A stretch of 32,919 nucleotides of DNA from a virus (lineage: Duplodnaviria; Heunggongvirae; Uroviricota; Caudoviricetes): IMG/VR virus record IMGVR_UViG_2690316321_000007. One strand, 5' to 3'. A model generated the notes under the pieces. It was not told where the DNA came from and searched no databases. It saw only the letters and a list, made by a program, of their open reading frames with translations. The translations under genes were made by a program, and so were the position numbers. This document shows, piece by piece, positions 1,418 to 31,038 of this stretch. Numbering within the stretch: position 1 is the first letter of the stretch; each line of letters starts with the position of its first letter.

Positions 1418-1446
1418 CTGCATTTATTAAGGTTATCATCCGTTTC

Positions 1447-1533
1447 GCTGAAAAACATAACCCATAAAATGCTAGCTGTACCAGGAACCACCTCCTTAGC
1501 CTGTGTAATCTCCCTTACACGGGCTTATTTTTT
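1447..1533 (+). ncRNA. cyaR: CyaR (RyeE) Hfq-dependent small RNA; its 3' terminator overlaps the prophage att core
   Basis: 87-nt stretch GCTGAAAAACATAACCC...CACCTCCTTAGCCTGTGTAATCTCCCTTACACGGGCTTATTTTTT matches the CyaR sequence as I recall it, including the anti-SD-like CCTCCTTA seed and a terminal hairpin plus T-run. Confidence 0.8.
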
Positions 1534-8645: not shown

Positions 8646-9089
8646 ATGTTAGATATCAGAATGTCACGACCATCTGAAGCAGATGAGATCATACAAATCT
8701 GGAAGAGTTCAGTCGATGCTACCCACGACTTTCTTACAGGTCATGACCGACAAGAAATCGAAAAAGAAGTTGTCGGCTTTTTCTCAGAAACTCCTGTATG
8801 GGTTGCAACAAATCAGGATGACCAACCGCTAGGATTTATGTTTTTGCATGAGGGCCATCTGGAGGCACTTTTTGTAGCAGGCTCTGCTCGCGGACTTGGC
8901 GTCGGAAAACGTTTGATCTCTCATGCACTGGCGCTGCATCCAGAGCTAAGCGTTGATGTAAATGAACAAAACCAGCAGGCTGTAGGGTTTTATCAGCATA
9001 TGGGTTTTCAGGTATTAGGGCGTTCCGATCTGGATAATCAGGGAAGGCCATACCCCTTGTTGCATCTGAGAATGGCCAATAACATGTAA
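8646..9089 (+). CDS. GNAT-family N-acetyltransferase, YjaB-like (147 aa); accessory cargo
   Basis: Motifs IWKSSVDATHDFL, LGFMFL, VGKRLISHAL and NEQNQQAVGFYQHMGF resemble E. coli YjaB from memory; AT-rich upstream region; lies in the G-FI junction. Confidence 0.75.
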   Translation: MLDIRMSRPSEADEIIQIWKSSVDATHDFLTGHDRQEIEKEVVGFFSETPVWVATNQDDQPLGFMFLHEGHLEALFVAGSARGLGVGKRLISHALALHPELSVDVNEQNQQAVGFYQHMGFQVLGRSDLDNQGRPYPLLHLRMANNM

Positions 9090-9109
9090 CCAATGTGGCA
9101 GAGAAGATA

Positions 9110-9694
9110 TCATTGATTTTTTTGGCTAAAAGCCACGATGTAAGAACAGCTCTGCTCACTATCTGGATTGCTCATTTGGTACTCGCTTGCAAAGGTAAGG
9201 GCAAGACAGTCACCGGCACGTAAATGATGGGTCTGATTTTTGACTCGAAAATCAAGGCTACCACTCATCACCCAAAGCGTTTGCCCGGAAAGATGCTCAT
9301 TTGCGGAGGCGGGTATCGTCAGCTCACCCATTGCAGGAATTTCAACTTTGATCAGTTCCGGGCATGCCCCCGCAGGAGACAAAGACCAACGGGTGATGCC
9401 TGATTGCTCATCCGTCCAGTGCTGTTGCTGATGAGCAAAACGAACCAGGGAATTCTGATGTTGCTCAAGCTCTGCAAAGAGTTTAGATAGCGTTACATTC
9501 ATGGCGTTGGCCAGGCGGCTAAGGATAGTTGCACTAGGGCTGGAGATGCCTCGTTCAATCTTACTAATCATGGCCTGACTGACGCCCGATCGTTGAGCAA
9601 GCTCAGTTACAGTCAAATTGCGAGCCTTCCTGTGTTTAAGCAATAAACGTGCAATATCGCTATCTACTATCTGATTTTTAGATTTTTTATCCAT
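9110..9694 (-). CDS. XRE-family HTH transcriptional regulator with C-terminal cupin domain (194 aa); accessory cargo
   Basis: N-terminal LTVTELAQRSGVSQAMISKIERG helix-turn-helix; C-terminal half has cupin-like character. The 305-aa six-frame ORF was trimmed to the ATG at 9694 because the extension overlaps G and lacks a ribosome-binding site. Confidence 0.7.
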   Translation of the reverse strand: MDKKSKNQIVDSDIARLLLKHRKARNLTVTELAQRSGVSQAMISKIERGISSPSATILSRLANAMNVTLSKLFAELEQHQNSLVRFAHQQQHWTDEQSGITRWSLSPAGACPELIKVEIPAMGELTIPASANEHLSGQTLWVMSGSLDFRVKNQTHHLRAGDCLALTFASEYQMSNPDSEQSCSYIVAFSQKNQ

Positions 9695-9929
9695 TTCCGC
9701 CCTCTCTTTCACCAACCTGATTATGCCATTACATAAATTGGCCTGAAATAAATGATTTTGTAAGTCTGTAAATTCACTACTCCTAAGCGTGGTACTTCGT
9801 TTATACGCACCTATGACCTTAAAATATGAGTTGGTAAGCTTAACGTCCGCTTTTGGCACAGAGCGGACTGTCAGATTAGGCTTTACTCTGTGCCATAGAT
9901 ATGTAAGCTCACACCAGAGCTCATACAAC

Positions 9930-10457
9930 TTATTGCGGCATTTCCGGCCATTCAGGATTTGCAGGATCCACACGACTGACCAGAACGCTGTAACGCTCCC
10001 ATGCATCCAGTCGGCTACGCTCCTCATCTGTTGCCATATTCAGTCTGACCGCGCGCTCCAGCGGCAAAATCACGGATTCAGCATCTGCTAGAAGTCTGGC
10101 TTTCCGATTTTCTGCCTGCTGCTGCAATTCCTCCGCCGTATAAATTCGTTTAATCACTGTGCCGTCCTTAAACATCCAGTTCCCTGAAATGTCCGCCCGT
10201 CGGTTAGCAGTAATATCTGGCACTTCAACAACACTTAATCCATCTGGTCTGATAGCTGTCACATCCTTTTCCACATAGCGGATAATATTATCTTTGTCGT
10301 ACGCTATTTTTATCGTGTCATCAGCAAAATACTTTTGTTCTTCGTACCAGTTCTTACCATCTTCTGAAAAAAACCAGACAACATCAAAACCCTTTGTCAA
10401 TTGATATTGTTCAACCGTTTTTGGATTACCCGCTGTTATATTTATCAAATGCTGCAT
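9930..10457 (-). CDS. G: Tail fibre assembly chaperone G (175 aa)
   Basis: Length and position match P2 gpG. Confidence 0.85.
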
Positions 10458-10460
10458 AAA

Positions 10461-12590
10461 TTATACCTGTGCCACGTTATACCATGTCCCGTTAATGTAT
10501 TTCTGCACCGGTCTGTAATATATGCCACCAATGTTATCGGCAGAGTTTGAGCCGGTATCCTGAACAATAATGCCAGAATATACACACCCGGACGGTGCCT
10601 GATGTGTCCATGTCATGCCATTGTTCGCTGGTTTGTATGTGGCAGCACCACCAAGCCGGATATCCCGGACATAGCGGGAATCAAAGTTACCGTAATCCGA
10701 GGGATTAACACGCCCCGTAATATTTATGGTTTTATTACTTTGAATGCTACCGGAGACAAAGCGCATAACATGGACGTTATTAGCATAAACATCCAGATTA
10801 CCGTCGCCATTTTGTTTAAAGCCCGTGTCATTATCACCCAAAACAATCGAGTTACCGCCAAGATCACTGGATGTTCCGATGCCCAGTGCACCATTCAATT
10901 GACCTCCAGATAATGACAACGCCCCAACATCAGCAGCAGTCGGTTTAATGTGCGAACTGTAAATTACATATACAGTTCCATCTGTCAGGCCTGTTGGTTT
11001 ATTCGCTGTATAAGTTGGTGATGTATGAATCGTTACGCTGGCGTTACTGGTATAATCCCACTGAATATTAACACCTGTGGCGTAATTACCTATTTCAACA
11101 TAAACATCATAGGTATCACCGGATGTATTCACCCATGCAAAATTAGTAAATCCAACCGATGTCCGTCGCCATAACGCACCAGTAAGACCTTTTGGATTTC
11201 CATTTCCCGCACGAAGAACAAGTTCAGATATACCAGCCTGCATAGGGGAGTTAACATTATATCCAGCACCACCAATCAGGCTTATGTAAACCACGGAACT
11301 TGCCTGGGGCATGGTTACAGTTGCCAGCCTGAACCATCCTGTACCACCACTAAAAGACATGGTTGTTGAATTTGTTGCTCCAATATTGCGCAGGAATAAT
11401 CTTTTATCAGGAATATCCGCACCGTTCTGATCTTTCTGAAGACGTTTTTCAGCATTGTCATAGGCAGACTTCACCGCTTTTGGTGTTGCGGCCAGCGTTT
11501 CAGAATCACTGTTGGTGGCGCTACTGAGCTGAACAAGCCCTTTTCGCGCTGTGGTGGCATCCTGTGCAGTGTATTTCCCGTTAGCAAGGTCATACGCGAC
11601 CTTTACCGCCTTTGGCGTTGCCGCAAGCGTTTCAGAATCGCTGTTTGTGGCGCTACTGAGCTGGACAAGACCTTTTCGCGCCGTGGTGGCATCCTGTGCG
11701 GTATATTTCCCGTTAGCGAGGTCATATGCTGTCTTAACCGCCTTTGGCGTTGCGGCCAGCGTTTCAGAATCGCTGTTGGTGGCGCTACTTAGCTGGACAA
11801 GACCTTTTCGCGCGGTGGTGGCATCCTGTGCGGTATATTTCCCGTTAGCGAGGTCATATGCTGCCTTTACCGCCTTTGGCGTTGCCGCAAGCGTTTCAGA
11901 ATCGCTGTTGGTGGCGCTACTGAGCTGAACAAGGCCTTTTCGCGCTGTGGTGGCATCCTGCGCGGTATATTTCCCGTTAGCAAGATCATAAGCGGCCTTT
12001 ACCGCTTTCGGCGTTGCGGCCAGTGTTTCAGACGTGCTGTTGGTCGCACTGCTTAACTGAGTAAAACCTTTTGCGGTCAGCGAGGCGTCCGGGTGACGTC
12101 GTGACTGTTCGTGCTCTGCAATTTTGTCATCAACGTAATCCTGCGTCGCCATCACCGTTGTGGTGTCAATGGTCAGCGCCACTGAGGCCACACTGCTGAC
12201 GATGATGACCATGCGGCAGGTCTGCGAACGCCCTGAGCCTTCGGCAAGAGCTGGCTTATAACTTTCGGCCATGTTCGCCACGGCAATTAACGTTCCAGCA
12301 TCATCGTACAGGCCAAGCTCACGCATCCAGAAACCGCCCACCTCCGGCGGAATAACCAGCTCTGCGATAATATAATTACTGTTTCGTTTGTCCTGGCTGA
12401 TTTTGTTCAGCGCATGTCGCCAGACTTCATGGATAAGCCCGGTCTGTCCGGCATCCGGGACAGGCAATTTACCACCGCCATCCCCGACGGCCATCGTGGT
12501 AATGTTGACCTTCCGCCCTCCCGGTGCGGTTGCCGCTGCCAGCTTTGCTGCACCGGCAGTGGTGATAACGGTTTTGAATTTTGTGCTCAT
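10461..12590 (-). CDS. H: Tail fibre protein H (709 aa) with expanded internal repeat and divergent C-terminal region
   Basis: Conserved N-terminus and the C-terminal IVLGDNDTGFKQNGDG...QKYINGTWYNVAQV block; five copies of a 44-aa repeat in the middle. Confidence 0.85.
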   Translation of the reverse strand: MSTKFKTVITTAGAAKLAAATAPGGRKVNITTMAVGDGGGKLPVPDAGQTGLIHEVWRHALNKISQDKRNSNYIIAELVIPPEVGGFWMRELGLYDDAGTLIAVANMAESYKPALAEGSGRSQTCRMVIIVSSVASVALTIDTTTVMATQDYVDDKIAEHEQSRRHPDASLTAKGFTQLSSATNSTSETLAATPKAVKAAYDLANGKYTAQDATTARKGLVQLSSATNSDSETLAATPKAVKAAYDLANGKYTAQDATTARKGLVQLSSATNSDSETLAATPKAVKTAYDLANGKYTAQDATTARKGLVQLSSATNSDSETLAATPKAVKVAYDLANGKYTAQDATTARKGLVQLSSATNSDSETLAATPKAVKSAYDNAEKRLQKDQNGADIPDKRLFLRNIGATNSTTMSFSGGTGWFRLATVTMPQASSVVYISLIGGAGYNVNSPMQAGISELVLRAGNGNPKGLTGALWRRTSVGFTNFAWVNTSGDTYDVYVEIGNYATGVNIQWDYTSNASVTIHTSPTYTANKPTGLTDGTVYVIYSSHIKPTAADVGALSLSGGQLNGALGIGTSSDLGGNSIVLGDNDTGFKQNGDGNLDVYANNVHVMRFVSGSIQSNKTINITGRVNPSDYGNFDSRYVRDIRLGGAATYKPANNGMTWTHQAPSGCVYSGIIVQDTGSNSADNIGGIYYRPVQKYINGTWYNVAQV
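11459..12059. repeat. Tandem 132-bp (44-codon) repeat, about 4.5 copies, inside tail fibre gene H
   Basis: Unit encodes QLSSATNS(D/T)SETLAATPKAVKxAYDLANGKYTAQDATTARKGLV; the nucleotide period of 132 is visible directly in the sequence. Confidence 0.85.
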
Positions 12591-17829: not shown

Positions 17830-18327
17830 TTAAGCCGGTACGCCGCCAGCGGTACGCCAGACGGTGGCCAGTTTTTCCAGTGAATGCTCACGCTGACCGT
17901 AACCGGCACCCGGCAGGGACGCCCAGATATTGCGACAGCGTGAAATGGCGCGCTCAATGCGTCCCGCCCGGATGTCATCCAGTGCACCGCGTTCGCGGAT
18001 CAACTGAATGGTGAGTCTGTCCTGCGACAACGAACTGAAATCCGGCAGGGCAAGCTGTTTGCGGTAGTGCGGCCAGAACAGGTAAAGCTGCTGATAGCGA
18101 CCGGAGGCAGTGGATTTTTCACCGCGACGGTTAAACACCTTCGCCGGTCGGCCATGCGCGAACGGGTGGTCACTGTAGTCGGTGAAAATTTCCGGCTTTC
18201 CGTCCAGTCCGGTGACTATCACGTCATAGCCCCGGTTTTTCGTCAGCGGATGATTCGCCGTCCCTTCGGACACGGCCAGCATGTCGAGAAAGGCGGCGAT
18301 ATTCTGATGCGTGTTAATTACCGGCAT
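17830..18327 (-). CDS. K: Endolysin K (165 aa)
   Basis: Length and position match P2 gpK. Confidence 0.85.
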   Translation of the reverse strand: MPVINTHQNIAAFLDMLAVSEGTANHPLTKNRGYDVIVTGLDGKPEIFTDYSDHPFAHGRPAKVFNRRGEKSTASGRYQQLYLFWPHYRKQLALPDFSSLSQDRLTIQLIRERGALDDIRAGRIERAISRCRNIWASLPGAGYGQREHSLEKLATVWRTAGGVPA

Positions 18328-18608
18328 TACGGTTTCCCCCTGCCCTTAAAGCGGCGCTGAATGGCAATCTCAATCACCTGATAACCGGCGATACCCAGCA
18401 TGGAGCCGATGCCGCACACCGCAGGCAGTGACAGGTCAGGAAACTGCACCAGAACAACACCGGCAACCATCGAGACAAAACCACCGAGCAACATGCGCCC
18501 GATAAACAGACGCGGGGTGATGGGTTCACCACCGGCAAGCACCTTGCCGACAACAATCAGCACCCCAATCATGAAAAGCGACAGGACGCTTTTTTCTTCT
18601 GCTGTCAT
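18327..18608 (-). CDS. Y: Holin Y (93 aa)
   Basis: Small protein with hydrophobic segments; length and position match P2 gpY. Confidence 0.85.
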   Translation of the reverse strand: MTAEEKSVLSLFMIGVLIVVGKVLAGGEPITPRLFIGRMLLGGFVSMVAGVVLVQFPDLSLPAVCGIGSMLGIAGYQVIEIAIQRRFKGRGKP

Positions 18609-18611
18609 GCG

Positions 18612-18815
18612 TTACTCCCACAGATTGACAGTTTCAGCCACGGGCGCGGTCTGAACGTCGGGCAGTTCGACGGCGGTGCCGTGCGGCAGCACCGCACCCA
18701 GTTCAGCCAGTCCCGGATTTGCGGCGAGCACGGCTTCAACCACGCCCTCAGTGCGCCCGTAATACCGGACACAAATGGCGTCGAGCGTGTCGCCCTGTAG
18801 CGCAAAGGTCTTCAT
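18612..18815 (-). CDS. X: Tail protein X (67 aa)
   Basis: Conserved MKTFALQGDTLDAICVRYYG start; six-frame ORF trimmed; start overlaps the L stop. Confidence 0.8.
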   Translation of the reverse strand: MKTFALQGDTLDAICVRYYGRTEGVVEAVLAANPGLAELGAVLPHGTAVELPDVQTAPVAETVNLWE

Positions 18816-19324
18816 CAGATTTGACTCACGATGCAACGCGGCTTGTCCTGGATGCGCGCCACTGCCCAGCGCATATCCCGCCACAGTTCATCAATGGTGC
18901 TGTCAATGCTGTCAGCCTTCTTGTCGCCTTTCGCACTGGCATCCACGCCGCGATAACGCTCATAAAGCGACGCGGTCGCCATCGCACACACGGCGCGCTC
19001 GTAGTAAAAAACTTTGATGCTTTCACCGTCGATGTCGTCCGCCGGGACGTCCGCCAGACGCGTAAAACCGGCGGCAATTTTCTGTTCGCGGTACTCGTAC
19101 AGATCCGCATTTGTTTCCGCCATACCTGACTTGATGGCCTCACGCAGACGGGCGGGGGCGACGGTCTGCTCAAGGCGCATACGTTCCCGGACGCGCTTCG
19201 GGTCGATATCGGGAAAAAAGAACGTGTTTTTAATCACCGGCTCGTCGCCTGCCGGTTGCGGGATGACCACCGTACCCTCACCGGACACGGGAGCCTCCTT
19301 TCGCGGAATAATCAGCGTCATCAT
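18815..19324 (-). CDS. L: Capsid completion protein L (169 aa)
   Basis: Conserved MMTLIIPRKEAP start; six-frame ORF trimmed by 20 codons. Confidence 0.8.
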   Translation of the reverse strand: MMTLIIPRKEAPVSGEGTVVIPQPAGDEPVIKNTFFFPDIDPKRVRERMRLEQTVAPARLREAIKSGMAETNADLYEYREQKIAAGFTRLADVPADDIDGESIKVFYYERAVCAMATASLYERYRGVDASAKGDKKADSIDSTIDELWRDMRWAVARIQDKPRCIVSQI

Positions 19325-19423
19325 GACTACCTCTGAAAAGTCGGGCGGTGGACGCCGGTGCAGTGTCAGGTGATTCACCCTCACTGACCGGCGTGCCGCC
19401 CTGGCGCGGGGCGCATTCGGTTG

Positions 19424-20167
19424 TTAACTGGCTTTCTTTTTCGGGCGTCCACGTTTTGCCGGTGTCGCACTCCGGGTCTTACGCGTGGCACGGGTGGCCG
19501 CTTTGGGTTGCGGCTCCGGCTTCGGTTTCAGCTCCCGCTCCAGTCGTTCAATCTCTTTTTTGACGCCTGCCTGACAGTCGAGCTGTGTCGCACGTTGCAG
19601 GTGCGCCAGCGCACCGGCGGCATCACCAGCGTCACGCAGAAACAGACCGGTGATTTTGTGCAGCTTTGCGCGCACTTCATCAGGCATGTCTGCCGTGGCG
19701 GTCAGTTCAAGGGTCTCCGTCAGCAGGCGGGGAGCCACAGACTCACCGGCAGCGTGGGCGCGCATGGCCGCGAGCGCGACCTCCTCGGTGAACATGTACG
19801 GCGGGGTGCGGCGGTGTTTACCCGGCATGGTCAGACCGTACTTCAGGGCATAACGGGCAATCTCCAGCGCACCGGCAATATCGCCGGTATCCAGACGCCA
19901 CAGCATGACCGTCATCAGAATGTCATCCTGTGCACCTTTTCCCTGCTCCAGCACGCCGTTCACCCACGGCAACCAGAACGGCAGCAGTTCGCGTTTTTTC
20001 GCGGCCTTCAGCTCTTTTGAATAAATTGCTTTCAGTGTGCGCTGGTCTGCGGCCAGCTTGACCAGCATCTGCTCATAGACAGTTGCATGTCGCAGCGGGG
20101 CGGCTTCCCGCTGCGCGGTCATCGCAGCCGAGACCCGCATCATGTGGCGCTGTGCGGGACTCGTCAT
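19424..20167 (-). CDS. M: Terminase small (endonuclease) subunit M (247 aa)
   Basis: Length and position match P2 gpM. Confidence 0.85.
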   Translation of the reverse strand: MTSPAQRHMMRVSAAMTAQREAAPLRHATVYEQMLVKLAADQRTLKAIYSKELKAAKKRELLPFWLPWVNGVLEQGKGAQDDILMTVMLWRLDTGDIAGALEIARYALKYGLTMPGKHRRTPPYMFTEEVALAAMRAHAAGESVAPRLLTETLELTATADMPDEVRAKLHKITGLFLRDAGDAAGALAHLQRATQLDCQAGVKKEIERLERELKPKPEPQPKAATRATRKTRSATPAKRGRPKKKAS

Positions 20168-20170
20168 CGG

Positions 20171-21243
20171 TTACGCTCCCGGCTCTGCGGTCGCCTTAGC
20201 CGGTGTGGAGAAATCACCGACCTTAATTTTTTCCACCAGACAACCGGCGGCGTAGTCTTCCACCACGTAATCAATGTTCATTGACTCGTAGTTCTCCACG
20301 CGGTCGAGTTTCGGGTTTTCCTCAATCACGCGGCGATGGCTGTCATCCATGTAGTAGATGGACAGGTTTTCCAGCTTCGTGATGAGCATCGCATCCGCCG
20401 GGAAGTACGGGACGCGTACCGCCGGCAGGTTACCGATGCGTTTCTGGCTGATGATGACGTCAGCGGCCAGCATCTCGCTGTTGTCCTGCTCCCTGTTGAC
20501 GATGGGGAAATACTTGTCCGCCAGTAGCTGGCGACCCACAATCACCACAAGGTCAGGGTCTTCCTGATACCACGGTTCAATCAGGTTGTTGGTCGCATCC
20601 ATCACCAGTGCATCAAGGCTGGCATAATCACCGCCCTTACCCACGCGGATAACCTCAGAGGTCGTGCGGCCTTCCTCGTCAGTGACCTTGCTCATCACGC
20701 GCGCCGGGGCTTCATTGCGGTATTTCTGCAGCCAGCCGACCGCCACATCCTGCAGCATCGGGTTACTGCTGCGGTCAGAGGTTTCGGCACGCTTCACGCC
20801 GTTAAAACCGGCCATGATGAAATCAAGGGACTGGCGTTTGATAATGGCGTTACGGACACGGAGCTGGAAATCCTGATAACGCGCCCACAGGTCCAGCGTT
20901 TTGTCGCGGATATAAAAATCGAAGTTAATCTGGTCGCATTCGTACTTGTTTGACGCCAGCTTCGAGAAGTCCTTCGGCTGACGCTCGGTGCCACCGGCGG
21001 TGTCGGTGGTGCTGGCGATGGAGCCGGTGACACCGATGCCAATTTTTTCCCTTTCATTTCGCTGACCGGCACAATGTTGATGCGGGTCAGAAAGTCAGAG
21101 GACTCCTGCATGGTGTTCATCAGGGTCTGGGTGACCGACGGTTCAACGGTGAATTTTTTCGACACATCACCGGCGTCGATGCCGTTCAGTTCGGCAACAC
21201 GGGACAGGTAAGCATTAAATTTAAAGCGGGTTTCCTGGCGCAT
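20171..21243 (-). pseudogene. N: Major capsid protein N, disrupted by a 1-bp frameshift in a homopolymer near 21046..21052
   Basis: Span is 1073 nt (1074 expected for 357 aa). The N-terminal 65 codons read in one frame to SEMKG, then the conserved continuation EKIGIGVTGSIASTTD... is in the -1 frame and stays open to the stop at 20171; the junction is GGG-AAAAAA on the coding strand. Confidence 0.8.
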
Positions 21244-21301
21244 AGTTTTTCCTGAAATTAAGGGTTAATCGTGAAGGTTTTCCCGGACTGACTGACGCCG
21301 G

Positions 21302-22156
21302 TCAGCAGTTCGTCAGCAGGGCATCACCGCCACCGCCGGTGGCTTTACTGCGGCGCTGCTGGGTCAGACTTTCGGTGTGGTCGAGACTGTTTTTCAGGCG
21401 GGTGAATGCCTGGCTGGTTTCATCCGCCCTGTCAGTCACCTCCTGCTTAAGAGTGGAAAAGGCAGTTTCCATCTCAGCGAGGCGCTGCTCAGTGGCACTC
21501 AGTTTTTCCTGCACATGTTCAGCAACAGCGGTCACCGCTTCATGCACGTCATTCAGACGGGCGTCATCGCTGGCCTGTTTGCGGCCAAAAATGGATTTCA
21601 CCTTTTCGGTCAGGGCGGTGAACACGGTTTCAGGCAGGTCTTCAAATTCCAGCTCAACGGGCGTTGCCACTGAAATCAGGTTTTCAGGGCTTAATTTGAA
21701 GCGGTTCAGGGGGTTGTGTTTTGCCGTGCGGCAGAATTCCAGGTATTCCGTGCCGAGGCTTGCCGGGTCATCGGTGACGGCCAGCCCCACCAGATAACAT
21801 TTGCCGGTGTTGGCAAAGTTCGGCTGAATTTCCATTGAGGTGTAGACCTTCTGCGCGGCCTTGTTCATCGCGATAAGGTCATCTGTCGGGGTGATTTTCG
21901 CAAACAGCGCCCATTTGCCTTTCAGCGCCGAATCATCGTCAATCTTTTCGGCCTTCAGTTCGGCCACATCGCCATAACGTTTAAAAATACCGTCAGGCAG
22001 GATGCCGCGCAGATGTTCCAGGTTAATACGGCAACCATAGACACGCGGGTCAAAGGTTTCGGCCATTTCCTGAATATCCTGCGCACTGATGACACGCCCG
22101 TCACAGGTGTCACCCTCAACGCCGATACGAAAGAATTTTGAGACTTTTTTTGCCAT
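21302..22156 (-). CDS. O: Capsid scaffolding protein O (284 aa)
   Basis: Conserved MAKKVSKFFRIGVEGD start; six-frame ORF trimmed by 22 codons. Confidence 0.85.
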   Translation of the reverse strand: MAKKVSKFFRIGVEGDTCDGRVISAQDIQEMAETFDPRVYGCRINLEHLRGILPDGIFKRYGDVAELKAEKIDDDSALKGKWALFAKITPTDDLIAMNKAAQKVYTSMEIQPNFANTGKCYLVGLAVTDDPASLGTEYLEFCRTAKHNPLNRFKLSPENLISVATPVELEFEDLPETVFTALTEKVKSIFGRKQASDDARLNDVHEAVTAVAEHVQEKLSATEQRLAEMETAFSTLKQEVTDRADETSQAFTRLKNSLDHTESLTQQRRSKATGGGGDALLTNC

Positions 22157-22329
22157 TGTCAGGAGTCCTGAATAGTGATTAGAGGAGTCACATGTCGGCA
22201 TCAGTTTCCCGACGATGCGCATCCTCCGCCATCAGTCCCGGATGGCTTATCACTGACACAACAGCACCTTAGCGAATCGCGGGGCGCGACTCAGTAGCCT
22301 TGCCGTGTATTCATCACGGCGAGGTATTC
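22157..22329. promoter_or_regulatory. Divergent late promoter region between O and P (expected Ogr-dependent)
   Basis: 173-bp intergenic region between divergently transcribed late operons; individual promoter elements not mapped. Confidence 0.4.
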
Positions 22330-24102
22330 ATGACCATCACCACAGACACCACTCTTTTACACGACCCGCGTCGTCAGGCGGCGCTGCTGTACTGGCAGGG
22401 GTTTTCCGTGCCGCAGATTGCCGCCATGTTGCAGATGAAACGCCCGACGGTGCAGAGCTGGAAACAGCGCGACGGCTGGGACAGCGTTGCCCCCATCAGC
22501 CGTGTCGAAATGAGTCTGGAAGCGCGGCTGACCCAGCTCATCATCAAACCGCAGAAAACCGGCGGTGACTTCAAGGAAATTGACCTGCTCGGACGCCAGA
22601 TTGAACGACTGGCACGGGTAAACCGCTACAGTCAGACCGGCAACGAGGCAGACCTTAATCCGAACGTCGCTAACCGCAACAAAGGCGGGCGTCGCAAACC
22701 GAAAAAGAATTTTTTCAGTGACGAGGCCATCGAAAAGCTGGAGCAGATTTTCTTTGAGCAGTCTTTCGACTATCAGTTGCACTGGTATCGCGCCGGGCTT
22801 GAGCACCGCATCCGCGATATCCTGAAATCCCGCCAGATTGGCGCGACGTTTTATTTTTCCCGCGAGGCGCTGCTGCGTGCCCTGAAAACCGGTCATAACC
22901 AGATTTTTCTGTCGGCCAGTAAAACGCAGGCGTATGTATTCCGCGAATACATCATCGCCTTTGCCCGGCTGGTTGACGTTGACCTGACCGGTGACCCGAT
23001 TGTCCTGGGCAATAACGGCGCAAAACTGATTTTTCTCGGCACCAACTCCAACACCGCGCAGAGCCATAACGGCGACCTGTACGTCGACGAGATTTTCTGG
23101 ATCCCGAATTTTCAGGTACTGCGTAAGGTGGCATCAGGTATGGCCTCACAGAGTCACCTGCGCTCGACCTATTTCTCCACCCCGTCCACGCTGGCGCACG
23201 ACGCCTACCCGTTCTGGTCGGGTGAACTGTTTAACCGGGGACGCGCCAGCGCCGCCGAACGCGTGGAAATCGACGTCAGTCATAACGCACTTGCCGGAGG
23301 TCTTCTCTGTGCGGACGGCCAGTGGCGGCAGATTGTCACCATTGAGGACGCCCTGAAAGGTGGCTGCACACTGTTCGACATTGAGCAGCTCAAACACGAA
23401 AACAGCGCCGACGATTTTAAAAACCTGTTCATGTGTGAATTTGTTGACGACAAGGCATCGGTGTTCCCGTTCGAGGAGCTGCAACGCTGCATGGTCGACA
23501 CGCTGGAAGAATGGGAAGACTATGCGCCGTTTGCCGCCAATCCGTTCGGCTCCCGCCCGGTATGGATTGGTTACGACCCGTCACACCGTGGCGACAGCGC
23601 CGGATGCGTGGTGCTGGCACCGCCGGTGGTGGCCGGTGGCAAATTCAGGATACTTGAGCGTCACCAGTGGAAAGGCATGGACTTTGCCACCCAGGCTGAA
23701 TCCATCCGCAAACTCACCGAAAAATATAACGTCGAATACATCGGTATTGATGCCACCGGCCTCGGTGTCGGCGTGTTCCAGCTCGTGCGCTCGTTCTATC
23801 CCGCCGCGCGCGATATCCGCTACACACCGGAAATGAAAACCGCAATGGTGCTCAAGGCAAAAGACGTTATCCGTCGTGGCTGTCTGGAATATGACGTCAG
23901 CGCCACCGACATCACCAGCTCGTTTATGGCTATCCGCAAGACCATGACCAGCAGCGGACGCAGCGCCACCTATGAGGCCAGCCGCAGCGAGGAAGCCAGC
24001 CACGCCGACCTCGCCTGGGCGACCATGCACGCCCTGTTAAATGAGCCACTCACCGCCGGTATCAGCACCCCGCTGACATCCACCATTCTGGAGTTTTACT
24101 GA
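22330..24102 (+). CDS. P: Terminase large (ATPase) subunit P (590 aa)
   Basis: Conserved MTITTDTTLLHDPRRQAALLYWQGF start; six-frame ORF trimmed by 10 codons. Confidence 0.85.
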   Translation: MTITTDTTLLHDPRRQAALLYWQGFSVPQIAAMLQMKRPTVQSWKQRDGWDSVAPISRVEMSLEARLTQLIIKPQKTGGDFKEIDLLGRQIERLARVNRYSQTGNEADLNPNVANRNKGGRRKPKKNFFSDEAIEKLEQIFFEQSFDYQLHWYRAGLEHRIRDILKSRQIGATFYFSREALLRALKTGHNQIFLSASKTQAYVFREYIIAFARLVDVDLTGDPIVLGNNGAKLIFLGTNSNTAQSHNGDLYVDEIFWIPNFQVLRKVASGMASQSHLRSTYFSTPSTLAHDAYPFWSGELFNRGRASAAERVEIDVSHNALAGGLLCADGQWRQIVTIEDALKGGCTLFDIEQLKHENSADDFKNLFMCEFVDDKASVFPFEELQRCMVDTLEEWEDYAPFAANPFGSRPVWIGYDPSHRGDSAGCVVLAPPVVAGGKFRILERHQWKGMDFATQAESIRKLTEKYNVEYIGIDATGLGVGVFQLVRSFYPAARDIRYTPEMKTAMVLKAKDVIRRGCLEYDVSATDITSSFMAIRKTMTSSGRSATYEASRSEEASHADLAWATMHALLNEPLTAGISTPLTSTILEFY

Positions 24103-25136
24103 TGAGCAAGAAAAAAGGGAAAACACCGCAACCTGCGGCAAAAAAAATGACCGCCAGCGCCCCGAAAATGGAGGCATTCACCTTTGGTGAGCCGGTGCCG
24201 GTACTCGACCGCCGTGACATTCTGGATTACGTCGAGTGCATCAGTAACGGCAGATGGTATGAGCCGCCGGTCAGCTTTACCGGTCTGGCGAAAAGCCTGC
24301 GTGCTGCCGTGCATCACAGCTCGCCGATTTACGTCAAACGCAATATTCTGGCCTCGACATTTATCCCGCATCCGTGGCTTTCCCAGCAGGATTTCAGCCG
24401 CTTTGTGCTGGATTTTCTGGTGTTCGGTAATGCGTTTCTGGAAAAGCGTTACAGCACCACCGGTAAGGTCATCAGACTGGAAACCTCACCGGCAAAATAT
24501 ACCCGCCGTGGCGTGGAGGAGGATGTTTACTGGTGGGTGCCGTCCTTCAACGAGCCGACAGCCTTCACGCCCGGCTCCGTGTTTCACCTGCTGGAGCCGG
24601 ATATTAATCAGGAGCTGTACGGCCTGCCGGAATATCTCAGCGCCCTTAACTCTGCCTGGCTGAATGAGTCGGCCACGCTGTTCCGCCGCAAGTATTACGA
24701 AAATGGCACACATGCCGGATACATCATGTACGTCACCGATGCCGTGCAGGATCGCAACGATATCGAAATGCTTCGCGAAAACATGGTCAAGTCGAAAGGC
24801 CGCAACAACTTTAAAAACCTGTTTCTCTATGCCCCGCAGGGGAAAGCTGACGGCATTAAAATTATCCCGCTCAGTGAAGTGGCAACGAAGGACGATTTTT
24901 TTAATATCAAAAAAGCCAGCGCCGCTGACCTGCTGGACGCACACCGCATCCCCTTTCAGTTGATGGGCGGCAAGCCGGAGAACGTCGGGTCACTGGGAGA
25001 TATTGAGAAAGTGGCAAAGGTCTTTGTCCGCAATGAGCTTATCCCGTTACAGGACAGGATCCGCGAGATAAACGGCTGGCTCGGTCAGGAGGTCATCCGC
25101 TTTAAAAACTACTCACTGGACACTGACAACGACTGA
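24102..25136 (+). CDS. Q: Portal protein Q (344 aa)
   Basis: Length and position match P2 gpQ; start overlaps the P stop. Confidence 0.85.
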   Translation: MSKKKGKTPQPAAKKMTASAPKMEAFTFGEPVPVLDRRDILDYVECISNGRWYEPPVSFTGLAKSLRAAVHHSSPIYVKRNILASTFIPHPWLSQQDFSRFVLDFLVFGNAFLEKRYSTTGKVIRLETSPAKYTRRGVEEDVYWWVPSFNEPTAFTPGSVFHLLEPDINQELYGLPEYLSALNSAWLNESATLFRRKYYENGTHAGYIMYVTDAVQDRNDIEMLRENMVKSKGRNNFKNLFLYAPQGKADGIKIIPLSEVATKDDFFNIKKASAADLLDAHRIPFQLMGGKPENVGSLGDIEKVAKVFVRNELIPLQDRIREINGWLGQEVIRFKNYSLDTDND

Positions 25137-25324: not shown

Positions 25325-25895
25325 CGCCCGCTTCATGTGGCGGTTTTAATGCAGTTGCATAGATACTATGGATCCGCACCAGCTCTGACCGCGAGCAGCT
25401 GGAACGGGCATCCCCGACGCATGCAAAAACATTCACTTGTTGCATGCACGGCTTATTAAATGACAAATCAACTTAAGCGTCACCGCAGCTCCCACAAAAA
25501 AACGTAACACCATGATTTTAGTGATATTTATGACTTTTTCAATTGCTTATTTAAGTCCGCCATATTGAAACCGTGCATTTTTTAGCCACCAATAACTTTA
25601 AAAAATTTACATTGCTTTCAATACCTTATCATCCGTAGTCCCTGCTTTTTACTTTGAGCTATATCAAAAAAAGCTCAAACATCCTTGATGCAAAACCAGT
25701 ATTACACAACATAAAATGCAACCAGAAACAACGACATACTATATGTTGTGTTGTTCAGGCTCTCTGTTCGGTGATATGCCAGATCACTTTGCGTTTAAAC
25801 AGAGCATTATTTCAGGGCAAGACTTCGCTAAATAGTAACTCCGCCTCAGAAGCGCATATATCGGCGGAAATTGCCCTCTGCTTACAGGAGGAGAT

Positions 25896-26009
25896 ATGAA
25901 GAAGTGCTATTACTGCATTCTCGTTCTGGCCCTCTTTGGCTATCCATATGGTAGTCCAAGTGGTTTGTCAGTAAACGTCAGTAATATCCATGTAAGTATT
26001 ATTCTTTAG
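25896..26009 (+). CDS. Candidate small hydrophobic protein (37 aa, MKKCYYCILVLALFGYPYGS...)
   Basis: ATG 4-5 nt after a strong SD AGGAGG; ends 11 nt before a strong terminator; lies in the AT-rich region at the P2 old/tin position. Could equally be the N-terminal stub of a lost gene. Confidence 0.35.
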   Translation: MKKCYYCILVLALFGYPYGSPSGLSVNVSNIHVSIIL

Positions 26010-26020
26010 TATGCTTCAAA

Positions 26021-26051
26021 CAAAAAAACCACCTGCCAGGGTGGTTTTTTT
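26021..26051. terminator. Bidirectional Rho-independent terminator (A7-CCACCTG..CAGGGTGG-T8)
   Basis: GC-rich hairpin flanked by an A-run and a T-run; ends both the small ORF (plus) and the early operon ending with A (minus). Confidence 0.7.
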
Positions 26052-26311
26052 GCGCCTGTCATCATTCCGATGAAAGACTAGCAAGACTTCGCTCGAGATG
26101 AATTATGCTTCGACAAAAGGTCACTCGCAATGGTTTTATTAGCCGAAATAGATGCTCTTTTATGACTCGAATCAAATAGCTACCTTAAATTACATGCTAG
26201 CGATTCAATACAATTTAGCCTTCTACTTCAGCATGCTATTGCTCCTCATCTGCCTTAGAGGCGCTCCGCATAATCCATTCAAAGGCATATAAAATCACGC
26301 TGCATTTTTAC

Positions 26312-28588
26312 TCAAATGGGTAACAAAAATCCAGGCCACTCATCAGCGACCGGATACGTGAATTTTTTCCCGTCATAATTTACGGTCGCGCCACGCGCCA
26401 GCGCCTCAAGCTCCCATCGCTGCGGCCTGATACCGTTCTGAGCAAGGTCAACGCGGATACGGGTAATTTGCATTCTTTCCGACCGGGTCAGTCTGGCCGA
26501 TGGTGCAATTTCATGTGGTTTTAACGGGCTTCCGTTTCTTTGCTGACGATTTGGTGTTCTCAGGTCGTGTTTTAATGCCCCCCTGAGCGCCCTCACGACC
26601 TCCGTGTCGTTCCATTCGATAACACCGTCATCAACCAGATTAAGCACTGCTGCGGCGTGTTCAGAAGGTGTGGGAGCCGGTAACGAAGTATCACCACCGG
26701 TGAGCTTTCCACAGTTATTGACAGGACTCCGAGGCGCGGCGATGCCGCTTTTTAAAGTCAAAGGCTCAACGACCGGAACTTTCGGCACAATGCGCCAGTC
26801 CGTCGTTCTGGTGATATGAATATGACGCGCGCCGAGATGCGGCGCGTAAATGCCGACCACTCTCTCGACTTCTTCCTCGTACTCGTTAACGTCATCCGAC
26901 GGGCTACGGGCAACCCTGACAGTCTGACAATCGCGCGGGACATTTGCCCCACCCTGCGCGCTGATATACAACGCAAAATCACCACTGTCTGCGGCAGCGC
27001 GAGCAGCCTCGACGCGTTCGTCAAACTCATCAGCAATACTGACGCCGCGAGGCAATTTGCGTAGTTCACGGTAAGCCCCCATTGTCGGCAGTCCAACCGT
27101 TTTAAATTGCGGGATGCGCCACGTTGACGCCCATGCGGTAACAGCCGCGGCAGTATCTTTAAGCGGCTTACCGGTATCGTTATCGAGCTGACCATCCAGT
27201 GCATAGCCGTCGATATTTTTTGAAATGTATTTCGCGATATATCCCGCAGCACCGCCCCGGTTAAGGTGCTTTGCCTGAAAACGGTTTCGCGCGGCTCCTC
27301 TTTCGTCACCATCCTCTTTGAGCGCATAGCGACGCATGATTTCGATAATCTGGTTACGCTGGCGTGGATTACAAAAAAGCATCATATGCCAGTGCGGCGT
27401 TCCGTCGTGGTGTGGCTCGACGACACGCAAACCGTAGACCTGTAAATCATTATCCTTGAATGCCGTGCGCATCAGGCTCCAGATGCGGCAGAGATAACGC
27501 TGCGCATCCTTTGGATTAAATGCCTCATCGTTCCAGCCGTGATTAAGCTGAACGGTTTTACTTTCGCCTTTTCTGACCTGACGAGTCGGGTGATACTTTG
27601 ACGGCGCGGTCAGCGTGATAAACATCCCCACATCACCCTCTGCGGCGGCGTAACGCTCAATACCGGCAATGGTGTTCATCAGCTCCATCCGGCGAATTTC
27701 AGGATTAGAAATACTGCCCATCACCTTACTGATAAGGTCGATGCGCTCGCCGGTTTCCCTGTTTTCAAGGTCACACGATTTAAGAAATTCCAGATTTGCC
27801 TGGCGGCGTGCACGCACATCACGAATGGCATGTTTACTGGCATAAGGAGAACGGTCTTTATTCACCTCCCCGACAGCAATCAGTAACGCCTCATGCCAGC
27901 GCATACGCTGGCCTTTGAGCTGATGAGTCCACCACTCATCGTTAAACAGACGGGCAATGGCAGAATATGCCTGCCTCGTGGTCATCTGTCCTTTACGGTA
28001 TTTTTTCCAGTAAAGCGGGGAAATATTGAAAGCACGTGCAGCGCCAGCAACATGACCATAGAGGTGAGCCTGCGCCTCATCCGTAAACAGCGATTCTTTT
28101 TCGCCATGTGCATCCACCCAGGCATCGCTGAGTTCCTCATACATCATGAAAAGCTGCGATGAGATACGGGCAGCAAACTTTTTCAGCTCCTTGTCATTCA
28201 TTCCCGGCAGGCGCGCATAGTGGTCACGCTCTGCCAGAAACAGTAACGACGCGTCGGTGTTCATTTCATGGCGCTGATTCACACGCTCAATGCGCGGCCA
28301 TAAACGACGCTGAAAAGTGGATGTGAGGAAATAAAACCCGTGCACCGGGCTTTTATTGCGCCTGATGTAGTCATAGCGTGAAGTAAACAGCGAGCGCAAA
28401 AAGTAAGGCAGGCGGTTAATCGTGGATAAAACACCTTGCACCTGACGCATCTCGTCACGTGTAAGGGGTCTTTCGCGCCCGACGGCCTCGCGTGGCGCGT
28501 TCCATGCATAAGCACCGGTAAACGCCTTACCGGTGCCTGCAGCAAATGCTGACGGAGGGACAAAACGCCCGGAGGCTTTAACGGCCAT
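26312..28588 (-). CDS. A: Replication initiation protein A (rolling-circle nickase); start uncertain, ORF open to TTG at 28630
   Basis: Conserved MAVKASGRFVPPSAFAAGTGK N-terminus at the ATG at 28588; the ORF extends 14 codons upstream to a TTG. Confidence 0.85.
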   Translation of the reverse strand: MAVKASGRFVPPSAFAAGTGKAFTGAYAWNAPREAVGRERPLTRDEMRQVQGVLSTINRLPYFLRSLFTSRYDYIRRNKSPVHGFYFLTSTFQRRLWPRIERVNQRHEMNTDASLLFLAERDHYARLPGMNDKELKKFAARISSQLFMMYEELSDAWVDAHGEKESLFTDEAQAHLYGHVAGAARAFNISPLYWKKYRKGQMTTRQAYSAIARLFNDEWWTHQLKGQRMRWHEALLIAVGEVNKDRSPYASKHAIRDVRARRQANLEFLKSCDLENRETGERIDLISKVMGSISNPEIRRMELMNTIAGIERYAAAEGDVGMFITLTAPSKYHPTRQVRKGESKTVQLNHGWNDEAFNPKDAQRYLCRIWSLMRTAFKDNDLQVYGLRVVEPHHDGTPHWHMMLFCNPRQRNQIIEIMRRYALKEDGDERGAARNRFQAKHLNRGGAAGYIAKYISKNIDGYALDGQLDNDTGKPLKDTAAAVTAWASTWRIPQFKTVGLPTMGAYRELRKLPRGVSIADEFDERVEAARAAADSGDFALYISAQGGANVPRDCQTVRVARSPSDDVNEYEEEVERVVGIYAPHLGARHIHITRTTDWRIVPKVPVVEPLTLKSGIAAPRSPVNNCGKLTGGDTSLPAPTPSEHAAAVLNLVDDGVIEWNDTEVVRALRGALKHDLRTPNRQQRNGSPLKPHEIAPSARLTRSERMQITRIRVDLAQNGIRPQRWELEALARGATVNYDGKKFTYPVADEWPGFLLPI

Positions 28589-28853
28589 ATGAGCCAAAAG
28601 CCTCTGAACAACGCCTGCTGAGTTGCTCAACCTGCGCGTTTAAATCAGCAAAAGACTTTGCGCTTCCGGTCAGAATATCGTGATGCATCAGGCCGGAAAC
28701 GAGCTGGCTTAATTTCGGATAATAACCAACCACCGCCAGCCATTCCTGACCGGCGTTTTTACCGCTTTCCGCTCTCTTTTTCTCGTGGAGAATAAACTGA
28801 AAGCTGTCACTGGTAACGACATAACGTTCGCCAATTTCAATACGAATACTCAT
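28578..28853 (-). CDS. Early-operon hypothetical protein (91 aa), P2 orf83 position
   Basis: ORF with coupled overlaps in the early operon between A and orf82. Confidence 0.65.
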   Translation of the reverse strand: MSIRIEIGERYVVTSDSFQFILHEKKRAESGKNAGQEWLAVVGYYPKLSQLVSGLMHHDILTGSAKSFADLNAQVEQLSRRCSEAFGSYGR

Positions 28854-29074
28854 GCCGTTCTCCGGTAATGTTTGTTTTTTGCTTCAAAGACTGACTGGCA
28901 GGAAACACAACGCGTGGCTGACGGATAAGCCGCACGACGGGCAGCAGGTATTGGCGCGTCACACTCTTCGCAAACCAGCGCAGAAGCACCGCAATGTTTT
29001 ACCCTTGCCGCGTTAATCTGACGCTCCAGTAATTCAGCCTGTTGTTCCTGAATAAAATCTACGTTGTCCGGCAT
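28850..29074 (-). CDS. DksA/TraR-family C4 zinc-finger protein (74 aa), P2 orf82 position
   Basis: CxxC...CxxC motif (CEECDAPIP...RCVSCQ) typical of TraR/DksA C4 zinc fingers. Confidence 0.7.
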   Translation of the reverse strand: MPDNVDFIQEQQAELLERQINAARVKHCGASALVCEECDAPIPAARRAAYPSATRCVSCQSVFEAKNKHYRRTA

Positions 29075-30738: not shown

Positions 30739-31038
30739 ATGTCAATAGACGTTTCGGAGAAGTTGAAGCTAATCCGTGAATCTGAAAGGTTAAACCGTAA
30801 AGAATTCAGTGAATTAACTGGTGTAGCCTACAGCTCACTTTCGAGCTATGAGAGCCGGTCAAAAAACGCTGGAGTTGAAGCCATAATGAAGGTCTTACAA
30901 CATCCCAGATTTACTAAATATACTTTGTGGTTCATGACTGATCAGGTAGCTCCAGAAGCCGGGCAAATTGCGCCCGCTCTCGCACACTTTGGGCAAAACG
31001 AAACAACGTCGCCCCACTCCGGTCAAAAGACTGGTTAA
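30739..31038 (+). CDS. C: Immunity repressor C (99 aa)
   Basis: Start chosen at the ATG with SD GGAG 8 nt upstream; length equals P2 C as recalled; a longer ORF from 30667 was rejected. Confidence 0.75.
   Translation: MSIDVSEKLKLIRESERLNRKEFSELTGVAYSSLSSYESRSKNAGVEAIMKVLQHPRFTKYTLWFMTDQVAPEAGQIAPALAHFGQNETTSPHSGQKTG

Follow-up and report, generated by a model that had tools for sequence, protein, structure and literature searches.

The major capsid protein gpN of phage P2 is required in several hundred copies for a T=7 head, and N-defective mutants are head-defective in established P2 genetics. The loss of a morphogenetic gene is also seen in decaying E. coli prophages, where one essential gene is lost while cargo, regulatory and lysis genes are kept; other P2-like prophages in complete genomes have a frameshifted D, P, M or N gene, or a truncated A gene. 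R-type tailocins, in turn, comprise P2-type contractile-tail and lysis modules without a working capsid gene. The locus described here was found in a stretch of viral DNA of 32,919 nt (IMG/VR virus record IMGVR_UViG_2690316321_000007), referred to below as the window. It resembles the P2 N mutants in its O-N-M gene order and in the full-length match of the repaired protein to gpN, and by analogy with them a truncation at codon 66 should act as in a head-defective N mutant. In contrast to those mutants, the window carries a 1-nt deletion that arose naturally in a resident prophage; it is found together with the private substitution Y114D and is known from its sequence. Compared with the other decaying prophages, the window shows the earliest recognizable stage, a single frameshift. 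Unlike the tailocins, it keeps the head genes Q, P, O, M and L intact and is without dedicated regulation, which gives no indication of domestication and makes the lesion look fresh. The reading preferred here is that of a real, recent and isolate-private inactivating G4 to G3 deletion in gene N of the E. coli 200499 prophage, which is probable from the sequence comparisons below. This is an ordinary example of a prophage in early decay, hit at the position of the gene most prone to slippage, a pattern well known in kind.

Gene N, which encodes the P2-family major capsid protein, was located at positions 20171..21243 on the minus strand, between the scaffold gene O and the small-terminase gene M of the late operon, as expected for the family. 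Its length was 1073 nt, while the matching phage N genes had 1074 nt in every case. The alignment with the N gene of phage HK111 had 142 columns and was identical except for one gap, HK111 having AAAGGGGAAAAAATTGG where the window has AAAGGGAAAAAATTGG; both comparisons bear out the loss of one base that had been claimed in the initial annotation. The deletion fell in a homopolymer tract at 21043..21051 (minus strand), in which the coding strand has GGG at 21051-21049 and AAAAAA at 21048-21043, that is, GGGAAAAAA. In the intact relatives this tract reads GGGGAAAAAA (G4A6) and encodes Gly65-Glu66-Lys67, so that the window is short of one G. The extra base was present in 109 out of 112 aligned relatives, and a specific one-base difference from 109 sequences is not a chance pattern.

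The first 65 codons of N were in the native frame, with ...SEMKG as their final residues, while residues 66-357 of P2 gpN were encoded in another frame that ended at 20174 (tblastn frames -1 and -3). Translation and tblastn thus agreed with the continuation in the −1 frame that had been read by hand. The position given for the junction (21040..21053) was wrong, however, as the corresponding string (GGGAAAAAATTGGC; GCCAATTTTTTCCC on the plus strand) was found at plus-strand positions 21038..21051, and the earlier coordinates were therefore 2 nt too high. As a result of the frameshift, the N-terminal ORF (20794..21243, minus strand) had 149 aa, made of 65 native and 84 out-of-frame residues before a TGA stop. 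The rest of the N frame, which corresponds to gpN residues 66-357 (20171..21049, minus strand), showed 98.97% identity to P2. The first start codon of this downstream frame was an ATG at 20815, which opened a 214-aa ORF (20171..20815, minus strand). The 149-aa ORF covered positions 1-63 of the Pfam profile PF05125 (profile length 327; E = 1.7e-19), and the 214-aa ORF covered positions 136-327 (E = 4.8e-91). When the frameshift was repaired, the protein matched the gpN of PDB entry 7jw1 over residues 1-357 (E = 8.6e-237), with three residue differences (Y114D, I129V and K250R). Instead of an uninterrupted ORF of about 357 codons, N was thus distributed over two frames split at codon 65/66, which makes it a pseudogene within the P2 capsid family (PF05125). 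The allele is undescribed in the literature, although it was already deposited in GenBank as two CDSs, the 149-aa ORF as CUA06823.1 and the downstream-frame product as CUA06820.1, both labelled 'major capsid protein'.

The remaining structural genes had been regarded as intact, and a tblastn search with the P2 proteins gave the same result, with only N appearing in two frames and all 40 of the 40 other P2 homologues being intact. In particular, a single frame of essentially full length was found for Q, P, O, M, L, X, Y, K, lysA, lysB, lysC, R, S and orf30, for V, W, J, I, G, FI, FII, E, T, U, D and ogr, and for int, C, cox, B, orf78, orf80-83 and A, and the E/E' region was gap-free in the alignment to P2. 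The late region, including the O-N-M order, had 93-100% amino-acid identity to P2, except for the variable tail-fibre genes H and G. On either side of N, gene O (scaffold/protease, 284 aa; 21302..22156, minus strand) was intact upstream and gene M (small terminase, 247 aa; 19424..20167, minus strand) was intact downstream in the same operon. Gene H was a single ORF of 709 aa (669 in P2) at 10461-12590, which aligned to P2 H as three segments in the same frame because of repeats within the gene and a diverged C-terminal region. Offset self-matches at about 11451-12075 (minus strand) revealed tandem repeats in H with a unit of about 132 nt and 84-88% identity.

Both attachment-site flanks and the integrase were intact, and the prophage was without deletions. 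A CyaR/RyeE sRNA (Rfam RF00112, 100.7 bits) was identified at 1445-1530 (plus strand), with trhP on one side and the ogr end of the prophage on the other; the prophage therefore lies in the trhP/cyaR-yegR site. The same chromosomal site was occupied in E. coli ECamp52 by a related prophage with a frameshifted D, a truncated A and an intact N (positions 601-1763 and 26897-28915 of locus L110); damage to single genes is accordingly no rarity among the P2-like prophages of complete genomes.

The 149-aa product had exact matches in two contigs only, namely CYGJ01000007.1 of GCA_001286605.1 and the Logan assembly of run ERR178148. The window was 100% identical to the former over 20,450 bp and to the latter over 13,437 bp, deletion included. 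The CYGJ01 genome is that of E. coli 200499, the retron-Eco8 strain (PMC8934634). The exact frameshift allele was absent from IMG/VR (vs. 107 wild-type matches) and from 5,426 complete E. coli genomes searched with a 46-nt query, which was confirmed not to be masked by the low-complexity filter. Among the GTDB species representatives, it gave two chance matches only, both in unrelated MAGs, and a scan of metagenomes with the exact allele gave one match. Moreover, no other public genome contained gpO, gpQ, K or FI proteins identical to those of this isolate, while the flanking host proteins were common. The prophages with an identical gpP had N intact in all cases and differed by about 2% at the DNA level; with the nearest comparable prophages at this divergence, the comparison is looser than one between strict sister prophages. 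That the mutation is recent is supported by the allele being found in no other public genome and by all neighbouring genes being intact.

A singleton in all public data is also what a sequencing error would look like, and both a recent mutation and an error, the two options given in the initial annotation, stay serious candidates, with the agreeing assemblies, the lack of private indels and Y114D favouring the mutation. If the missing G were a homopolymer sequencing or consensus error, the gene would be intact in the living strain; such an error would be in keeping with an allele confined to the data of one isolate and with the undamaged state of all neighbouring genes, which a prophage without real defects should show. 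However, the GenBank and Logan ERR178148 assemblies, built with different pipelines, agreed base for base over 13.4 kb. Both presumably derive from the same reads, so their agreement excludes an assembler artefact and leaves room for one of the library or the chemistry. In addition, the deletion in N was the only indel separating the window from nearly all its relatives (up to 112 aligned, over the prophage parts that they covered), and these covered parts contained no other private indel. In contrast, error-laden assemblies had several indels in or next to N: strain 1442 had three in N alone, and FDAARGOS_448, CP120715 and CP121426 had broken neighbouring genes, with O and P split in the last two. 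Frameshifts at the same tract were found in such indel-rich assemblies (strain 1442, CP120715 and CP121426), which speaks for an error and marks the tract as an error hot spot as well. On the other hand, runs of three or four G and six A are short for consensus-level errors in short-read data, and a second damaging change private to N is unexpected for an intact gene under selection. Overall, a sequencing error is an unlikely explanation, though one to be taken seriously, and the preferred reading is a real deletion.

The second change in N was the private substitution T340G at position 20905 (minus strand), which replaces Tyr114 by Asp. All 109 relatives had T at this site, and a 55-nt probe centred on T340G had no match in the 5,426 complete E. 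coli genomes. Furthermore, Tyr114 was invariant in nine divergent P2-family capsid proteins with identities down to about 50%, a comparison that included P2, PSP3 and SEN4 and the Yersinia, Klebsiella, Ralstonia, Pseudomonas and Burkholderia homologues. The frameshift-repaired protein keeping D114 was absent from a collection of 15 billion proteins, while the repaired protein with Y114, in which both lesions are reverted, was found in 15 other contigs. It follows that N has been hit exactly twice with respect to the nearest sampled protein allele, and both hits, the frameshift and Y114D, are damaging as judged from the sequence. Across genes K to Q (17830-25136), the singleton substitutions of the window were 7 nonsynonymous and 6 synonymous, compared to 79 and 267 in 27 other haplotypes (Fisher P = 0.017). 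This excess is modest and consistent with relaxed selection in the window; the test was post hoc, with 13 sites, and a few other haplotypes had similar ratios. A GC→AT bias of the private substitutions was also considered as a sign of decay and was dropped, as the control haplotypes showed the same bias (243/346).

The tract in which the G was lost proved to be a recurrent site of breakage. The frameshifted N-terminal fragment had 44 members in its 90%-identity cluster, and 17 further proteins were recovered by a search with the out-of-frame tail, while the cluster of intact N had 13,109 member sequences. Among the 31 frameshifted N fragments from public data that were inspected, 22 were broken in the GGGGAAAAAA tract and 9 elsewhere. 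The breaks in the tract were 17 changes from A6 to A5 (…KGEKL…), four from G4 to G3 (…KGKKL…, window counted) and one A8. The same loss of G was found in the allele of Logan run ERR10913423, which was about 2% divergent, differed at 20 other sites and kept Tyr114, and it is therefore an independent event. Among the complete E. coli genomes carrying N (about 1,500), G4A5 was present in two and G3A6 in none.

The recurrence of A5, G3 and A8 length variants in different allelic backgrounds could be read as a reversible contingency switch at the G4A6 tract that lets P2-like prophages stop and resume the production of capsids. Such a switch is extremely improbable, however, as known phase-variable tracts are far longer than 4-6 bases, and here the runs had 3-4 G and 6 A instead of a long repeat with frequent on and off variants. 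The off alleles were very rare in the complete genomes and missing from IMG/VR as given above, some of the variants lay within error-prone assemblies, and the nucleotides of the tract were not conserved beyond the close relatives of P2. Instead of a switch, the GGGGAAAAAA tract at codons 65-67 represents the weak point of P2-type capsid genes, affected by real mutations as well as by sequencing errors, and breaks in it are worth checking before a prophage is named intact or defective. A second A6 run was observed near the 3′ end of N, at 20227-20232 (minus strand; coding position about 1013, GGTGGAAAAAATTA); it reads A5 in one IMG/VR relative (L081) and is a minor second frameshift-prone spot. 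Another route to the same defect was seen in GCA_958326715.1, where an IS21-family IstB gene at the contig start lay directly upstream of an identical C-terminal part of N (positions 1-1163 of locus L120), suggesting the insertion of an IS21-family element into N.

Regarding the origin of the deletion, the most likely mechanism would be replication slippage in the homopolymer, by which the four G of GGGGAAAAAA at codons 65-67 would have become three. Translation would then depart from the native frame after Gly65 and halt after 84 wrong residues; since codon 66 precedes the HK97-fold body of gpN, no capsid protein should be made. By analogy with P2 genetics, head production would almost certainly be lost, and the prophage would provide heads neither for its own phage nor for a P4-type satellite, while its replication, tail, lysis and cargo genes could still be expressed. 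Moreover, about 620 nt separate the end of the 149-aa ORF from M. Some polarity on M to S, the downstream genes of the O operon, might result if translation is not resumed at the ATG at 20815, 19 nt ahead of the stop. In practical terms, the P2-like prophage of strain 200499, from which retron-Eco8 comes, is to be treated as head-defective and as unlikely to give plaques or to help P4-type satellites, while its genes for tails, lysis and cargo appear functional. The current understanding of prophage decay remains unchanged, the only slightly unusual aspects being the recurrence at one tract and a chance likeness to a frameshift site.

This likeness concerns the programmed −1 frameshift sites of dnaX, of the IS3 and IS911 family and of P2 E/E', with which the N tract shares an A-rich tRNA-Lys stretch and a hairpin at 6 nt. 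The predicted mRNA hairpin (20985..21036, minus strand) has a 14-bp GC-rich stem with arms at 21036-21023 and 20998-20985 and begins 6 nt past the A run, within the 5-9 nt expected between a motif and its downstream structure; the 93-nt stretch had a predicted energy of -43.1 kcal/mol (z = −3.54). Unlike the programmed sites, the N tract has only a tetramer, with a low expected efficiency, and the intact relatives need no shift, as they encode N in one frame instead of the two-frame arrangement with conserved motif and structure. In the zero frame, GGG_AAA_AAA_UUG offers A_AA.A with an imperfect P-site (G_AA), and the canonical X_XXZ_ZZN heptamer is absent (motif rules in PMC4066793). The hairpin was retained in close relatives, while both the homopolymer tract and the hairpin were absent from eight homologues (PSP3, SI22, Yersinia, Klebsiella, Ralstonia, Pseudomonas, Burkholderia and SEN4). 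An evolved recoding signal was rejected on this basis, and the resemblance to the programmed sites is incidental; the tract and hairpin could allow at most an incidental and weak −1 slippage.

Leakage would be a way for the allele to yield some capsids, if a −1 slip on the A run, helped by the hairpin, produced full-length gpN with E66K. The downstream frame is indeed −1 with respect to the upstream one, and a zero-frame A_AA.A tetramer is followed by the predicted hairpin at a suitable spacing. In E. coli, Z_ZZN tetramers with a strong stimulator (a pseudoknot) gave 0.26-5.6% frameshifting, and A_AA.A was among the responsive ones; however, it was the weakest of the six, and without a stimulator the values were about 0.15%, which is background (PMC4066793). 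Against a leaky allele, the P-site re-pairing from AAA to GAA is imperfect, the rescued protein would still carry Y114D, and the tract and hairpin show no sign of selection for recoding in distant homologues. A yield below 1% would be unlikely to nucleate the assembly of a head that needs several hundred gpN. From these predictions, the formation of some capsids by slippage is very unlikely, and the allele is better regarded as the inactivating deletion proposed above. Slightly more doubtful still is the broader idea that the tract and hairpin might make N alleles with one-base deletions partly self-correcting by −1 slippage. If this were true, a slip would give back the unaltered wild-type protein from G4A5 alleles and yield the E66K form from G3A6 alleles, and such prophages would persist as low-yield phages, explaining both the recurrence and the tolerance of deletions at the tract.

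Further observations were made in the variable parts of the prophage. The immunity repressor gene C (30739-31035, plus strand) had 64.6% identity to P2 C and cox had 83.5%, compared to 95-100% for most other genes, which indicates, at the sequence level, that the immunity type differs from that of P2. In the slot of the P2 Z/fun genes, the cargo (8646-10027) comprised a GNAT acetyltransferase ORF (8646-9089, plus strand) and an opposing ORF with an HTH_3 and a weak cupin match (9110-10027, minus strand), for which the overlap with gene G makes an internal start probable. Finally, the slot of the P2 old/tin defence genes contained about 0.9 kb (25400-26300) with a G+C content of 32-44% and without any ORF of at least 90 aa. 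Helicase, GmrSD or DUF7380 genes occupied this slot in relatives. E. coli E24377A and other genomes carried the same DNA with an identity of at least 99% and without any annotation.
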